Part shown: positions 12,832 through 17,418 of the stretch, one piece after another
How the letters are laid out: every line of letters begins with the position of its first letter
How positions within the stretch are numbered: the stretch's first letter is position 1
Source: Escherichia coli
GTDB taxonomy: Bacteria; Pseudomonadota; Gammaproteobacteria; Enterobacterales; Enterobacteriaceae
Length of the DNA: 64,000 bases
Assembly: GCF_036507355.1 (NCBI RefSeq)
Contig: NZ_AP027877.1
Reading direction: 5' to 3' (one strand)
Position numbers and translations under genes: made by a program
The notes under the pieces: model-generated
What the model was told of the DNA's origin: nothing
The model's database searches: none
Seen by the model: only the letters and a program-made list of their open reading frames with translations

Positions 12832-14220
12832 TTACCTGTTTTCCCACAATCTCAGCATCGCTTTGTGTTCGTCTGTCAGCACAATCTGCGGGCGTCTGGC
12901 TCGAATATAGCTAATCGCTTCATTAACGGTTTTACAGTGTCCGTAACATAACAACCATGCCGCCACCACCAGCGCACTGCGCGATAATCCCAATGCACAA
13001 TGGACCAGAACGCTGCCTTGCTCTTCGCGTAATGTTTCCAGCATCGCCACGGCCTGTCGGAGTTCCCCCTCTTCCGGAACCACCAGATCCAACATCGGTA
13101 CACAGAAATAGAGTCGATCTTTTGTCTCTCGTCCTCGAGGGAATTCAAAGGTGACGTCCAGAACCGCATTCTGTGCCGGAATATGTCGTGGAAACGCCCC
13201 TAAATAAACACCAGCAGTCATTTTGCTCACCGGCTCCAGGCGACGACAAAACCAACGCATAGATAGCCACATCCCGATACGCCAGGGCAATGTCAGCCAG
13301 TAAACGGCGGGCGGGAGTTTCCCCTGACTATCTTTCCCTGTTGTTATCGCGCCAAGCCCACCGTACCCACGGCCAATAATGAGTAGCGATAATACTGGCC
13401 AACATAACCAGACTGACCACCATAACTGAACCATCATCATTAGCTCCATCAACACAATGCACGCGCACGCGCCTACGACATATGGCAGTGCTATTTTGAT
13501 TCGACGTTGATCAGGTTTCTGATAATTCCAACGACGGTCGACGGGTACCATCCAGTCAATCAACATACCTCCCGCCAGCCCTGTGATGACATCAATAAAA
13601 TGATGCTGCCAGGTTGTCAGCGTCGAAATGGCGATGAGTAAAAACCATCCGCCGCAGACTTTACGCCACCTCACAGCCAGATGCTGACGAAAGTGACGCC
13701 AAAGTAGCCAGCAGAGAATAATATGCAGCGAAGGAGACTGGTTATAAGGCAGATCAAACAGTTCAAGTTGCGAAAATAGCCATCCTGTCACCCCACTCAC
13801 TTCAGGACGGATAAAACTAAACTTCAGCGGGTAGAGAAAAAAACCGCAGCAGGCCATTACCGTTGCCAGAATAAGCCGGTGGACAAGTCGGCGCTGTTCG
13901 AATGTCGAGCTACAAACGAACAGCGAAAATCCATATAAAAGATCCAGACTCCAGTAAGGAACAATAGTCCAGGGAAGAAAAGGGATCGCCGTTTCCCAGC
14001 CGAATACCTGACTGGGGATATCATGGCTGTTAAAGTCCTGAACCGCGGTGAACTGATTTAGAGATCCATAGGTGAAGAAGAAAAACGGGGCCAGCAACAA
14101 TAACCAGCCAGCGCCTTGTAGCAATACGTTCCGGCGTTCAGTTATCACGACGCACCGCCATCGAAACCGTAAAAATGCCCCACTCATCAATCCGTTGAGT
14201 GCATTTATCAAATCCGGCAT
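12832..14220 (-). CDS. ynbD: Membrane protein with C-terminal dual-specificity phosphatase domain (start uncertain)
   Basis: N-terminal multi-TM region and a C-terminal CX5R phosphatase motif ([10 protein letters not shown]). The track ORF overlaps ynbC by 83 nt, so the true start is probably further downstream. Confidence 0.7.
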
Positions 14221-15895
14221 TACGCACGAGCGAATCCATCTCCCCTTGCGAACGCACGCGCATTACCCACGGTTTACCATCTTTATGACTGGTTAACACC
14301 CCGGCAATCAGCTCCAGTTGTGGGTGCCACGGCTGCCCGGTGTAGAGGAGAATGCCGCCCGGTTCGATGGCATTGGCAAGACCTGCGAGTGAGTTTTTTA
14401 CCTGCTCATTTTCGGGAAAAAGCTCATACAGGCCAGAGACAATCGCCAGCGTAGGCCGCGGAGTTAACGCGCTGAGTTCCTCTGGGTTAAACGCATCGCC
14501 CTGTTCAAAACACACCCGCCCAGACATTCCCCGTTGAGCAATCATCTCTTGCCCCTGTGCAACATTTAACTCGCTGTAATCACGTAACAAAATATCGCTT
14601 ACGGCAGGCTCGTTTGCCAGCGCATCCAGTACATAGCGCCCATGCCCTGCGGCAATGTCAACCACGCGGACGGCTAAACCTTTGGCGTGGAGATCGGCAA
14701 CGGCTTGTTTAATCAGTATTTGTAAATGGGTTTTGCGCTGGCGAATACCGCGCCAGCCAACACTGTTCAGGTAGATTTTGTCGATTAAGCGCCCGAATGC
14801 GTTACTACCTTGCGGTTGATTTTGATAGACATAATCCAGCGAACTGCCTGAATCAAAGCCGGTGCCCATTCCGAGATGCAGGCCCGCAGAGTGCGTCCCG
14901 AACAATTTCATCGCTTTACGCATAAAGCGATACGCCAAATCAACCGGCGATAATGGCACGGGTCCACCTGAAAGGAGCCGCCAGCGATCCGCTGATGGTC
15001 CAGTGCGGTCTTCATGCTGATAATCAAATTTTTGTGACTTGTTAGCATATAAACGACTAATAAAGCTTTGCATTTTTTCAAATGCCTGCGCCCTGTTCTC
15101 TTCACCCAACGTGTCATGATAAAAGCCAGGCAGCAGATGCAGCTCTTTCAGAGGGCTACGTAATCTCTGATAAAAATCAATCTGCGGTTGACGATGCACC
15201 ACATAGTCATCGCCTGATATCAGAAGTTGCGTGGGGAGCGTAATCGCCGCCGCATCGCTAACAATACGTTCAGACGTTTTATAAAGATCGAGCAAGATAT
15301 TAACGGCAATCGCCCGTGTGATCAGCGGATCATTATTGAAACTCGCCACCCGTTGCCGATCGTGGGTCAAATAGCGTCCTTGCACATAGGAATTAATAAA
15401 AAACAGACCACGCAGACGATGCCATAACGCCAGCGCAGGACGTGCCAGCGGCACATACAATTTAACCTTAAAGGCCGGAGAAGCCAGCAGCAGCCCGCGA
15501 ATTGCAGGCGCATAATCATGAACCCATGTGGCAACCAGCACTGCGCCGACGCTTTGCGCGATCACTACCACCTCTTCCAGTCCAACCTGGCTGTCGCTGG
15601 CAGCAAAACGGACAAATTCATCGACATCCCGCACTGAACGCGCAAGAGATGGGCTATAACCACGCGGCCCCGAAGTTTTTCCATGCCCTCGGGCATCCCA
15701 GGCATAAAAAGCAGTATCTGGCATCGCCAGTTCATCAACGAGATGTTGTAGACGACCAGAATGTTCATGACCGCGATGAAATAAGACGATGACCTTTTTC
15801 GCCCCGGGCTGTAAAGCGGGCCAGTGCCGATAAAACAACGCTGTATTATCACTGGTGGTAAAAAAATGTTCCCCAGGGATGCGTGAATTTTCCAT
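14138..15895 (-). CDS. ynbC: Bifunctional alpha/beta-hydrolase / SAM-dependent methyltransferase-like protein
   Basis: 585-aa ORF; N-terminal hydrolase-like half and C-terminal Rossmann-like half; third gene of the ynbABCD cluster. Confidence 0.7.
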
Positions 15896-15910
15896 TTTCT
15901 CTATTTTCCT

Positions 15911-16807
15911 TCAGTAACAGCAGTAGCGAATAAAATAAAAAAATACCGGATCGGTGAAAATTAATGAGTCAATCCTGTCAAGGAGTCCGCCATGTCCTGG
16001 TAATAGTTTTCCGCTATCTTTAACACCAATATCTCGTTTGATGGCTGACATCACTACATCGCCGCAAAAACCACTAATACCAATTAACAAACCCGCTAAT
16101 AATGCCTGTAATGTATTTAGCGGTGTCAGCAACGGTCCAATAATCAGTGACGCAATCATGGTGGTGATGACGCCCCCCACCAGACCTTCCAGCGTTTTTC
16201 CCGGGCTGACTTTGGGGACCACTTTTCTTCTGCCGCAGGATTTCCCCCATAAATACTGTGCAATATCGTTTGACTCTGTTAACGCCAAAAGAAATAACAC
16301 CAGTAACGCCCCGCCCTGGGTATTTATGGTTGGCAACATTAATAGCCAGGCGGTATGACTCAAGGCGAAAACGGTCATTATCCAGCCCCAAAAAATGGCG
16401 CTCACGATATGCAGAAAACCGGAGGGATCACCCACAAAAACTCGCCAGGTGGCTAATATCAGAAACCCAGTCAAAGGTATAAATAACAGAAACAGCTCAA
16501 AGCAATTAAAACCGATAAGCAAATAGTTAAGAGGAATAACCCAATATAACCAACGCGGAAAATGTACGGATATAAGCGTACAATATTCTTTCAATGCCAG
16601 AAAACTTATCAGCGCAAAAAACGTCAACGTCATCCAGCGTGGACCTGAAATCACCAGTGAAAAACAAATGACGATACCCCACCAGGTACGAATACGTAAT
16701 GTAACTTCATCCCCTTTTCTCTCCGGTAACCGCCATACCCGAAAACGGTTTATCAGCGTTGCTAAAATTAACAACGCGAAAAGTGTTGCCAGAGATTTTT
16801 CCAGCAT
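15911..16807 (-). CDS. ynbB: CDP-diglyceride synthetase (CdsA)-like integral membrane protein
   Basis: 298-aa multi-TM ORF; its start overlaps the ynbA stop at 16807. Confidence 0.7.
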   Translation of the reverse strand: MLEKSLATLFALLILATLINRFRVWRLPERKGDEVTLRIRTWWGIVICFSLVISGPRWMTLTFFALISFLALKEYCTLISVHFPRWLYWVIPLNYLLIGFNCFELFLLFIPLTGFLILATWRVFVGDPSGFLHIVSAIFWGWIMTVFALSHTAWLLMLPTINTQGGALLVLFLLALTESNDIAQYLWGKSCGRRKVVPKVSPGKTLEGLVGGVITTMIASLIIGPLLTPLNTLQALLAGLLIGISGFCGDVVMSAIKRDIGVKDSGKLLPGHGGLLDRIDSLIFTDPVFFYFIRYCCY

Positions 16808-17418
16808 TATCTTTCAGCACTCATCAGGAGCACACTCCGACAACGATTAATCGCAGTCCAGATAAGCAGAATTGAAGCAATGCCCCATAAAAGATTATTC
16901 CATTGCATCCACTGTGGATAAATGGCAACGGCCAGCCCCCACAACCCAAATATTAACGCACGATCGCTTTTGCCGAATGGACCGGCATAACTGCGAATAC
17001 CGTTAATCGTCTGCGCGAGTAAACCGCAAAACTCAGTCAATATGGTGCAAAATAACATGAGTATTACGAGTGATGCGTTACTTTCCGGTAAAAATAAAAA
17101 CGGTAAATAGAGCGCAATATCGGAAATAACATCGCCAGTTTCATTCAAAATCGCCCCCAGACGTGTTTGCTGATTGCACTCACGCGCCAACATGCCATCC
17201 AGCGCATTGAGTGCCATACGGATAAAAAGCACGATGGGCAATAGCAAAAAGAGGATGGGTTGTGCGACCAACATCAACAGCAATCCGTTAATAAGAGAAA
17301 GCGCCAGTGCAGCAAGAGTGATGTGATTCGCTGTAACATGGTGCTTATAAAGCCAAAACATCGTCGGCCTTAACAGCGACTGAAAGAGCGGTTTTATCTG
17401 GTAGAGCGTCATTATCAA
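16807..17418 (-). CDS. ynbA: CDP-alcohol phosphatidyltransferase family protein
   Basis: 203-aa membrane ORF with the CDP-alcohol transferase motif (…DGMLAR…G…GDVISD…). Confidence 0.75.
   Translation of the reverse strand: MIMTLYQIKPLFQSLLRPTMFWLYKHHVTANHITLAALALSLINGLLLMLVAQPILFLLLPIVLFIRMALNALDGMLARECNQQTRLGAILNETGDVISDIALYLPFLFLPESNASLVILMLFCTILTEFCGLLAQTINGIRSYAGPFGKSDRALIFGLWGLAVAIYPQWMQWNNLLWGIASILLIWTAINRCRSVLLMSAER

Follow-up and report, generated by a model that had tools for sequence, protein, structure and literature searches.

The ynbABCD operon of Escherichia coli is best interpreted, with a probability of roughly one half, as a normally silent accessory glycerophospholipid module and as the E. 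coli remnant, with four of six genes, of a cassette whose presence in Gamma-, Beta- and some Alphaproteobacteria would be due to horizontal transfer. In the window, the 64,000-nt stretch of DNA that was analyzed, the ORF listing shows four co-directional minus-strand ORFs, as a sequence-only reading had claimed, and the genes occupy positions 12832 to 17412. They match ynbA, ynbB, ynbC and ynbD, flanked by ydbD and azoR-hrpA, in a megablast search of 5,426 complete E. coli genomes, and the locus is the genuine E. coli ynbABCD operon (Table 1). All four domain assignments made in the sequence-only reading are upheld by Pfam, and its idea of a dedicated phospholipid head-group pathway is supported as an interpretation.

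Table 1. Features of the ynbABCD locus (window coordinates).
Feature	Position	Strand	Basis
ynbA: non-canonical CDP-alcohol phosphatidyltransferase, 201 aa from the probable start	16807..17412	-	Pfam PF01066
ynbB: CdsA paralogue (CDP-diacylglycerol synthase), 298 aa	15911..16807	-	PF01148
ynbC: monoacylglycerol-lipase-like serine hydrolase (~1-270) and class I SAM methyltransferase (~275-585, PF12147)	14138..15895	-	
ynbD: 438 aa from the probable start, predicted 8-TM SMS/Aur1-like PAP2-superfamily domain and predicted cytoplasmic CX5R dual-specificity phosphatase domain	12832..14148	-	
ydbD-ynbA intergenic region, ynbA promoter and regulatory DNA	17413..17581	-	Sequence and literature
Hairpin with a perfect 11-bp stem between the convergent genes ynbD and azoR (53 nt apart)	12793..12822	.	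RNA fold
ynbC stop/ynbD start overlap, GTGATAACTGA, probable translational-coupling junction	14138..14148	-	Sequence
Probably mis-called 5' extension of ynbD, within the ynbC coding sequence	14149..14220	-	Weak Shine-Dalgarno, closed frame

As listed, the ORFs comprise 203 aa (16807-17418, TTG start), 298 aa (15911-16807), 585 aa (14138-15895) and 462 aa (12832-14220, first ATG). Translation of ynbA probably starts at ATG 17412 and not at TTG 17418; this ATG is the RefSeq start and has an AAGGA Shine-Dalgarno sequence (-5.2 kcal/mol, spacing 5). The genes had been described as partly overlapping, which applies to ynbA/ynbB, where the ynbA stop and the ynbB start ATG share a single base (TAATG), and to ynbC/ynbD, but not to ynbB and ynbC, which are separated by 15 nt. 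Such compact packing on one strand, where the first two genes overlap by 1 nt, the middle two lie 15 nt apart and the last two overlap by 11 nt, supports the module interpretation.

An overlap of 83 nt between ynbC and ynbD, which had been suspected to reflect a mis-called start or translational coupling, results only when ynbD is read as its longest ORF, and comparative as well as Shine-Dalgarno evidence favors GTG 14148 with an overlap of 11 nt. Translation of ynbD thus probably starts at this GTG (438 aa) and not at ATG 14220 (462 aa). Among the candidate starts, GTG 14148 pairs best with the anti-Shine-Dalgarno sequence (-6.1 kcal/mol, spacing 4) and is annotated by RefSeq in three of the four strains checked, and the identical 11-nt GTG overlap is kept in the nearest Citrobacter clade, most other loci having overlaps of 4, 1 or 8 nt. 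The Shine-Dalgarno sequence of ATG 14220 is poorly placed (-3.6 kcal/mol, spacing 14), an open ynbD frame extends no further upstream than -53 in syntenic Citrobacter loci, and the ATG itself arises incidentally from the YnbC codons xAT-GCC; the additional upstream segment is therefore probably not translated in the ynbD frame.

The ynbA promoter has been mapped and is silent unless activated by BglJ-RcsB, which binds 65-68 bp upstream of the transcription start (PMC3950696). A simple sigma-70 consensus scan of the ydbD-ynbA intergenic region, where the G+C content is low (43-46%), found no promoter-like site, which fits a promoter that is normally silent and depends on an activator.

The conservation of the operon was surveyed by tblastn of six proteins on 80 loci from other species. 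Most of these loci add a PlsC-type acyltransferase and a membrane protein of ~135-150 aa, giving a six-gene cassette. The predominant gene orders are A-C-D-6-T-B (38 loci), A-B-T-C-D-6 (17) and A-C-D-6 (12), where T denotes the acyltransferase, and the A-B-C-D layout of E. coli was found in none of the 80. Citrobacter keeps all six genes at the same azoR-hrpA locus where E. coli lacks two. E. coli ynbABCD is a cut-down copy of this cassette from which the genes for the acyltransferase and for the small membrane protein have been lost. The sequence-only reading had seen a complete pathway, which does not hold for E. coli, since most of the 80 loci combine the four genes with two that E. coli is missing; the E. 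coli pathway may therefore be incomplete or rewired. In one distant locus (L007), YnbA is fused to YnbC, ynbB and ynbD lie nearby and a patatin phospholipase is added, whereas the genes flanking the surveyed loci include no other conserved member.

The loss of two genes raises the alternative that the E. coli operon is a decaying remnant without pathway-level function, kept as a spare CDP-diacylglycerol (CDP-DAG) synthase (YnbB) or persisting by slow decay. Besides the reduced gene set, the layout confined to E. coli in this survey and the silent promoter, this is supported by deletions without a robust phenotype in the literature, by a ynbB pseudogene in strain Ec-U4-19 (one of five strains compared) and by its incomplete prevalence, the operon being missing from about 15% of the complete E. 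coli genomes and missing or partial in about 20%. However, all four ynb genes are under purifying selection. The dN/dS values of ynbA, ynbC and ynbD range from 0.08 to 0.26, with alleles reaching a dS of 0.17, and it is ynbA (0.08-0.15) that is most constrained while ynbB (0.18-0.52) is least constrained. Furthermore, a motif check against orthologues found the catalytic residues intact in every E. coli Ynb domain, the translational coupling signals are retained, and the A-C-D-6 clusters of Proteus, Providencia and Xenorhabdus, which lack ynbB and the acyltransferase, show that subsets of the cassette can be maintained. Decay without function is therefore considered unlikely. The accessory module, by contrast, is supported by the conserved co-occurrence of the genes, by the intact catalytic residues, by the dN/dS values of ynbA, ynbC and ynbD and by the 4,622 of 5,426 complete E. 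coli genomes that carry the operon. It has its own difficulties here: ynbB, for which alone an activity has been demonstrated, is under the weakest constraint and is a pseudogene in one of the five strains, and about 15% of the genomes lack the operon.

YnbA matches the CDP-alcohol phosphatidyltransferase family (PF01066, E 4e-9, model positions 3-148 of 152), and its nearest solved protein is the phosphatidylinositol-phosphate (PIP) synthase PgsA1 of Mycobacterium tuberculosis (6h53, 4e-8). Among characterized proteins, its best relatives belong to the PIP and archaetidylinositol-phosphate synthases, whose substrates are phosphorylated alcohols and which are followed by a phosphatase. The family signature D1xxD2GxxARx8GxxxD3xxxD4 is replaced in YnbA by N69xxD72GxxARx8G86xxxN90xxxD94. 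Of 77 orthologues, 76 carry Asn at D1 and D3, as does the distant YnbA-YnbC fusion; no precedent was found for activity of a CDP-alcohol phosphatidyltransferase with such an Asn/Asp/Asn/Asp site, and the fact that only D2 and D4 are kept among the four canonical metal-binding Asp positions argues against the module interpretation. In PgsA1, D68 and D89 both coordinate Mg-1, and R94, the Arg following D4, is essential for binding of inositol phosphate (PMC6506517). The residue aligned with R94 is V95 in YnbA, and 76 of 77 sequences have Val or Ile there. An assignment as PIP or archaetidylinositol-phosphate synthase was rejected, since YnbA lacks an equivalent of R94 and scores below the NCBIfam equivalog cut-offs (NF045883, 47.4 vs. 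170 bits; NF040950, 74.4 vs. 180).

The logic of phosphatidylinositol pathways nevertheless matches the ynb proposal. In mycobacteria (PgsA1) and in Bacteroides, where BT_1523 and a PIP phosphatase act before the inositol-phosphoceramide synthase BT_1522 as the last pathway enzyme, a CDP-alcohol phosphatidyltransferase using a phosphorylated alcohol is followed by a dedicated phosphatase and, in Bacteroides, finally by a head-group transferase (PMC9246714, PMC6506517). In contrast to these pathways, the ynb phosphatase is a CX5R dual-specificity phosphatase (DSP) domain, whereas that of Bacteroides is PgpA-like, and the ynb cassette further includes a CdsA paralogue of its own as well as a fusion of lipase and methyltransferase. 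No gene for an inositol-phosphate synthase accompanies the cassette in the flanks of the surveyed loci.

YnbB matches CTP_transf_1 (PF01148) over its full length (4e-68, model positions 2-263 of 264), whereas the NCBIfam CdsA equivalog covers the C-terminal half only and, at 108.7 bits, stays below its cut-off of 385; YnbB is therefore a paralogue and not CdsA itself, from which it differs by an unrelated N-terminal half. Like CdsA, it makes CDP-DAG in vitro and sustains the synthesis of MPIase, a glycolipid with a GlcNAc-PP-DAG precursor, for which it serves as an auxiliary back-up; it is cold-induced and dispensable, its overproduction raises MPIase, and it does not substitute for CdsA in bulk phospholipid synthesis (PMC6362211, PMC7018664, PMC11413397). 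The claim that no product had been assigned thus fails for YnbB, a published CDP-DAG synthase, and stands for the other three genes, ynbA, ynbC and ynbD, and for the operon in its entirety, for which no assigned product was found in the searchable literature. A published biochemical assignment, which had been named as an outcome that would overturn the sequence-only reading, accordingly exists in part, through the YnbB literature only. In E. coli, the sole demonstrated output of the operon is the contribution of YnbB to CDP-DAG and MPIase, especially in the cold.

It could be argued that the whole operon serves MPIase, with YnbB providing CDP-DAG, YnbA (rather than CdsA or YnbB) adding GlcNAc-1-phosphate to yield GlcNAc-PP-DAG, the PAP2-like domain of YnbD recycling diacylglycerol pyrophosphate and YnbC trimming or modifying the lipid. 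Lipid pyrophosphates are indeed common substrates of PAP2-superfamily enzymes, and the two Asp-to-Asn replacements in YnbA would lower the negative charge of its site and could suit an anionic phosphate nucleophile. In addition, published work reports that overproduced YnbB raises MPIase about three-fold and restores it under CdsA depletion, and that ynbB is cold-induced together with MPIase. However, MPIase is reported to be essential, yet deletion of ynbB leaves it unchanged, and the operon is silent in standard culture and absent from about 15% of the genomes. Published work also credits the synthesis of GlcNAc-PP-DAG to CdsA and YnbB themselves, the searchable literature yielded no MPIase data on ynbA, ynbC or ynbD, and in many non-enteric taxa the cassette is found together with genes for a lipase, a methyltransferase and an acyltransferase, for which a part in MPIase synthesis is not apparent. 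A dedicated MPIase operon is therefore judged quite improbable.

In YnbD, Pfam reports a weak match to PAP2_3 (residues 107-218, E 1e-3), as opposed to the classical PAP2 family, and a DSPc domain at residues 338-461 (2e-27; numbering of the 462-aa ORF). The C-terminal domain exhibits the CX5R P-loop, the general-acid Asp and the DSP fold. A mitochondrial CX5R phosphatase, PTPMT1, converts phosphatidylglycerophosphate (PGP) to phosphatidylglycerol. By a simple hydropathy rule, the PAP2-like motifs are predicted to be non-cytoplasmic and the DSP domain cytoplasmic. H142 is present in 73 of 74 orthologues, and H182, H183 and D186 in all 74, whereas the C1 stretch K109-x4-R114-P115 departs from the KX6RP motif with conserved Lys of hydrolytic PAP2 enzymes: position 109 is Arg in 33, Lys in 14, His in 11, Gln in 9 and Thr in 5 of the 74 sequences, R114 is Arg in 59 and P115 is invariant. 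The lack of a conserved C1 Lys supports the module interpretation. The nearest structural matches of the modeled membrane domain are SMSr and Aur1, both head-group transferases, and not the hydrolase PgpB. Like SMS, SMSr and Aur1, YnbD keeps the catalytic His (C2) and the His-x3-Asp (C3), matches PAP2_3 and has a predicted non-cytoplasmic site; unlike them, it carries a fused cytoplasmic phosphatase domain, and the identity is only 11-13%. To our knowledge, E. coli does not synthesize ceramide, and the acceptor of YnbD must therefore differ from that of SMS and Aur1. Plasmid-borne ynbD did not complement temperature-sensitive strains deficient in C55-PP phosphatase or PGP phosphatase (PMC7413402), which shows only that C55-PP and PGP are not substrates of YnbD.

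YnbC combines PF12146 (Hydrolase_4, residues 32-266) with PF12147 (Methyltransf_20, residues 275-582, 5e-151). The N-terminal half has the Ser-Asp-His triad and the MGL fold and thereby resembles the monoacylglycerol lipases Rv0183 of M. tuberculosis, human MGLL and yeast Yju3, which it exceeds by the fused PF12147 domain. In the C-terminal half, SAM motif I (DxAxGxG; D413, A415, G417, G419) is invariant among 86 sequences, and the downstream acidic residues D439 and D467 are conserved in 85 and 71 of them, a pattern indicative of a class I SAM-dependent methyltransferase. The best PDB profile matches of this half are generic, and no characterized or closely related solved member was found for PF12147.

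Within the accessory module, YnbB would first convert phosphatidic acid and CTP into a private CDP-DAG pool, a reaction shown in the literature. For the following steps, the basis is homology and predicted structure only. YnbA, with its Asn/Asp/Asn/Asp metal site, would join CDP-DAG to an alcohol that is probably phosphorylated, and the cytoplasmic CX5R domain of YnbD would strip the terminal phosphate, as PTPMT1 or PgpA does on PGP and PIP phosphatase on PIP. The membrane domain of YnbD, with its putative periplasmic His-His-Asp site, may then transfer the phospho-head group to an acceptor or cleave it, releasing diacylglycerol. Finally, the lipase-like half of YnbC may deacylate a mono- or diacylglycerol-type intermediate, and its methyltransferase half may methylate the head group or an acyl chain. 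In full cassettes, the PlsC-type acyltransferase and the small membrane protein would complete the cycle. A more specific and rather doubtful version is a two-sided relay in which phosphatidyl-X would be made from private CDP-DAG at the cytoplasmic face by YnbA and the fused CX5R phosphatase, and the sphingomyelin-synthase-like domain of YnbD would move phospho-X, possibly methylated by YnbC, to an envelope acceptor at the periplasmic face. If true, this would place an SMS/Aur1-type transferase in bacteria not known to make sphingolipids and would imply a new lipid or envelope modification for E. coli and many other proteobacteria.

A mainly catabolic or remodeling role, in which hydrolase-type domains dismantle lipids of exogenous or host origin, for example phosphoinositides or lysolipids, and YnbA and YnbB re-use the pieces, is the least probable alternative: three of the five catalytic domains have hydrolase-type folds, the distant locus adds a patatin, and ynbD is listed among candidate fitness genes of uropathogenic E. 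coli in systemic infection, but the constant partners (YnbA, the CdsA paralogue and the PlsC-type acyltransferase) are biosynthetic, the DSP domain is predicted to be cytoplasmic, and the flank survey found no transporter, binding protein or secretion signal conserved with the cassette.

At the downstream end of the operon, the hairpin between ynbD and azoR folds at -25.7 kcal/mol for 76 nt (z = -3.6; 0 of 200 shuffles as good). It was not called by the terminator scan because no U-tract directly follows, and it may serve as a shared transcript end or stabilizer.

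The membrane lipids of E. coli are usually regarded as fully catalogued, consisting of PE, PG, cardiolipin and a few minor species. Most strains of this best-studied bacterium retain, under purifying selection, a silent operon that specifies another CDP-DAG synthase and another head-group transferase, together with three more lipid-enzyme domains, and ynbABCD represents a real, testable gap in its lipid biology. The best-supported reading, to which we assign a probability of roughly one half, is that the operon is an accessory, usually silent glycerophospholipid module. These genes have long been annotated and the newness does not lie in their discovery; taken as a system, they form a variant of CDP-DAG-dependent head-group synthesis that awaits characterisation, and several of its parts are unusual. 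Three results change the search for its product, namely that the unit comprises six genes, that YnbA is non-standard and that YnbD resembles a transferase-phosphatase.

The window is chromosomal E. coli DNA in reversed orientation relative to K-12. The operon of four lipid-enzyme genes proposed by the sequence-only reading is confirmed, and Pfam bears out each of the domains it listed: CDP-OH_P_transf in YnbA, CTP_transf_1 in YnbB (4e-68), Hydrolase_4 and Methyltransf_20 in YnbC (the latter at 5e-151), and a weak PAP2_3 match together with DSPc (2e-27) in YnbD. The most likely ynbA start is an ATG with a well-spaced AAGGA Shine-Dalgarno sequence, which is also the RefSeq start; the TTG at 17418 leaves no spacing for a Shine-Dalgarno. 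The ynbA stop and the ynbB start have one base in common (TAATG), and ynbC follows ynbB after 15 nt with its own Shine-Dalgarno. No Rfam family was matched in window positions 12000-18600. The stops of the convergent genes ynbD and azoR lie 53 nt apart, and the gap holds a perfect 11-bp hairpin (76-nt stretch, -25.7 kcal/mol, z = -3.6); the terminator scan missed it because a U-tract directly after the hairpin is absent on both strands.

Features of the ynb locus and of related loci in other genomes (SD, anti-Shine-Dalgarno pairing in kcal/mol)
Feature	Sequence	Coordinates	Strand	Details
hrpA	window	8070-11972	minus	
azoR	window	12173-12778	plus	
ynbD-azoR hairpin	window	12793-12822		
ynbD, ynbC, ynbB, ynbA (low to high, after azoR)	window	12832-17412	minus	megablast against 5,426 complete E. 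coli genomes
ynbD start TTG	window	14124	minus	430 aa; no ynbC overlap; SD -3.5, spacing 4
ynbD start GTG	window	14148	minus	438 aa; 11-nt ynbC overlap; SD -6.1, spacing 4
ynbD start ATG	window	14220	minus	462 aa; 83-nt ynbC overlap (sequence-only reading); SD -3.6, spacing 14
ynbA start ATG	window	17412	minus	201 aa
ydbD fragment	window	17582-18451		beyond ynbA, high-coordinate side (same megablast); last 289 codons
IS1	window	18479-19246		23-nt terminal inverted repeats; insA/insB ORFs
BigA-like ORF	window	19220-21493		757 aa; autotransporter adhesin BigA model, 4e-150
InsB-sized ORF	window	21729-22232	opposite	
sixth cassette gene	L008	13031-13429		
sixth cassette gene	L002	11026-11433		
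sixth cassette gene	L078	13025-13468		
YnbA-YnbC fusion locus	L007, metagenomic	6970-14629		927-aa fusion
ynbB pseudogene	L088, E. coli Ec-U4-19	3380-4276		internal stops

The suspicion that the ynbD start had been mis-called or is translationally coupled is supported by cross-species overlaps, Shine-Dalgarno pairing and RefSeq starts, with GTG 14148 as the probable start. At more than 60 loci of other species, ynbD opens with ATG or GTG and overlaps the ynbC stop by 4, 1, 8 or 11 nt, and the YnbD N-terminus is just as short in taxa that lack the overlap. In the nearest Citrobacter clade, whose cassette occupies this chromosomal site too, the 11-nt GTG overlap is kept and the ynbD frame is closed upstream of -53, so that the E. 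coli ATG at -83 has no counterpart there. RefSeq never uses the 462-aa form; it gives 438 aa for three strains and 430 aa for one. Alleles from five E. coli strains do not decide between the candidates, as every candidate codon lies inside conserved ynbC codons and is itself conserved; conservation of the upstream ATG is thus a by-product of YnbC coding. The corrected start has consequences for how ynbD is cloned and expressed.

YnbC homologues form 408 clusters (50% identity) at E <= 1e-30, and a scan of one genome per species yielded 80 loci in Enterobacterales, Neisseriaceae, Burkholderiales, Rhodocyclales, Pseudomonas and one Bradyrhizobium; separate look-ups added a Vibrio and Snodgrassella. 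Look-ups of distant YnbC representatives led to contigs of about 3 kb without informative neighbours. When cassette content was determined by tblastn with the E. coli proteins and two extra genes first met in Snodgrassella, the recurrent set comprised ynbA, ynbB, a PlsC-type acyltransferase (T), ynbC, ynbD and a small membrane protein (6). The acyltransferase (214 aa) has invariant HX4D and FPEGTR motifs. The sixth gene, present in most of the 80 loci and missing from E. coli, encodes a 133-150-aa membrane protein with the shared motif W/Y-x-L-R-x-x-x-D-x-x-x-F, which matched no Pfam or NCBIfam family. Clustering of flanking ORFs revealed lineage-specific synteny alone and no seventh conserved gene. 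The order A-C-D-6-T-B is found in 38 of the 80 loci, A-B-T-C-D-6 in 17 and A-C-D-6 in 12, and the E. coli order A-B-C-D in none of them.

In Citrobacter and relatives the six-gene cluster adjoins azoR-hrpA, the same site as in E. coli, where a 15-nt spacer occupies the place of the acyltransferase and ynbD abuts azoR. Read most simply, this means that two genes, those for the acyltransferase and the small membrane protein, have disappeared from E. coli. The operon is therefore not the "complete pathway" it had looked like, as the E. coli copy holds four of six cassette genes, which limits its interest. Since the natural unit is six genes, an intact cassette is better suited for expression, and the Citrobacter copy at L008 7844-13432 is a candidate.

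Loci of Proteus, Providencia, Morganella, Xenorhabdus and some others (L023, L026, L032-L035, L037-L040, L044) carry solely ynbA-ynbC-ynbD and the small membrane gene, with ynbB and the acyltransferase absent nearby. The latter two thus look dispensable, added to a core of four genes that is not the four-gene set of E. coli. In the A+T-rich metagenomic locus L007, the genes after that for a YnbA-YnbC fusion encode a patatin phospholipase and a short-chain dehydrogenase; next come ynbB and a 592-aa ynbD orthologue on the other strand. The fusion, with ynbB and ynbD kept nearby, argues that the Ynb enzymes share one substrate stream, and the locus is possibly a sister version of the cassette.

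Within E. coli, 4,622 of 5,426 complete genomes contain the operon, and 4,280 do so with at least 80% coverage. About 800 genomes have no match and five matches lie on plasmids; no complete genome exceeds 99.0% identity to the allele of the window (12832-17418), most matches being at 96-98%. A comparison of five alleles, in which dS reaches 0.17, puts dN/dS at 0.08-0.15 in ynbA, near 0.2 in ynbC, at 0.16-0.26 in ynbD (0.41 in a single very close pair) and at 0.18-0.52, the highest of the four, in ynbB. The sole operon gene with a published activity is ynbB; in the urine isolate Ec-U4-19 it is annotated as a pseudogene, and ynbA, ynbC and ynbD are intact. The pseudogene and the missing cassette genes could be taken as signs that the E. 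coli operon is a decaying remnant, a reading we regard as doubtful: the genes without known function are better conserved than ynbB, which argues against simple decay.

YnbA is nearest to PIP and archaetidylinositol-phosphate synthases and scores well under their cut-offs. When YnbA is aligned with PgsA1, the PIP synthase of M. tuberculosis, Asn stands at two of the signature Asp positions, the first and the third, a feature shared by 76 of 77 orthologues and by the distant L007 fusion. Val/Ile takes the place of R94, an activity-essential PgsA1 residue implicated in inositol-phosphate binding. These substitutions point to a distinct subfamily with a predicted altered metal site; YnbA is neither a standard PIP synthase nor a standard PG-phosphate synthase. 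The YnbD model is confident (pLDDT 92). Its C-terminal domain folds as an ordinary DSP, in which Cys and Arg are invariant and Asp nearly so, and its top matches include the lipid phosphatase PTPMT1, which scores no better than protein DUSPs. The membrane domain keeps the PAP2-superfamily His and His-x3-Asp, not the C1 lysine, and hydropathy and the positive-inside rule predict a topology of eight transmembrane helices in which the PAP2-like motifs face outward and the DSP domain lies inside. YnbD has been described as the fourth putative membrane PAP2 protein of E. coli, with no function ascribed, and does not complement C55-PP-phosphatase or PGP-phosphatase mutants (PMC7413402). On this non-complementation, residue conservation and structure comparison, a PgpB-like C55-PP/PGP phosphatase was rejected; the protein resembles a fusion of head-group transferase and phosphatase. 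YnbC is likewise modelled confidently (pLDDT 93), and its methyltransferase half has intact SAM motifs; against PDB sequences, the profile of this domain found generic class I matches alone (best E 1e-6, Rossmann core).

In the proposed glycerophospholipid module, YnbB provides CDP-DAG, as shown in the literature, to which YnbA would join an alcohol, probably phosphorylated. The DSP domain of YnbD would take off the phosphate, and its SMS/Aur1-like domain may either cleave the phospho-head group or hand it on to an acceptor located at the outer face of the inner membrane. YnbC may deacylate and methylate an intermediate, which in full cassettes the acyltransferase would re-acylate. The logic of the module would parallel a route found in mycobacteria and Bacteroides, which runs through PIP synthase, PIP phosphatase and IPC synthase. 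YnbA falls outside the PIP synthases, and YnbD outside the PgpB-type phosphatases. The product itself cannot be named from sequence.

The earlier statement that no product had been assigned holds for ynbA, ynbC, ynbD and the whole operon, for which a literature search found no function or product, and fails for YnbB, the sole assignment; the claim was thus partly answered already. YnbB is a CdsA paralogue, with homology confined to the C-terminal half, that synthesises CDP-DAG in vitro; its overproduction raises MPIase, a glycolipid with a GlcNAc-PP-DAG precursor, about three-fold, and under CdsA depletion it restores MPIase and not bulk phospholipid (PMC6362211, PMC7018664, PMC11413397). The gene is dispensable, and cold induces ynbB and cdsA together (same references). 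For the MPIase field this raises the question of whether the neighbours of YnbB are involved in making MPIase. A dedicated MPIase pathway with YnbA as GlcNAc-1-P transferase would accommodate the overproduction data and is unlikely. A catabolic or remodelling role of the cassette is quite improbable.

Reported phenotypes are weak or indirect: polyphosphate accumulates in a ynbC transposon mutant in a single strain background only, a UPEC bacteraemia screen lists ynbD as a candidate fitness gene, and ynbB is a Tn-seq hit in an ECA_PG-only strain, yet ECA_PG is made without ynbB. A role in ECA_PG synthesis was rejected, as ynbB is reported to be unneeded for it and the cassette also occurs outside Enterobacterales. 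The ynbA promoter is among ten loci activated by BglJ-RcsB, a class otherwise silent in the manner of H-NS targets (PMC3950696). A consensus scan for sigma-70 promoters and terminators gave fewer sites than in shuffled controls and none upstream of ynbA. In the window, an IS1 copy truncates ydbD, with the BigA-like ORF directly past it and a second InsB-sized ORF further on. Strain D8 has a complete ydbD of 2,307 nt, followed by pdxI; against this arrangement, an IS1-associated deletion or rearrangement seems to have occurred at 17582-22232, just upstream of the ynbA promoter.
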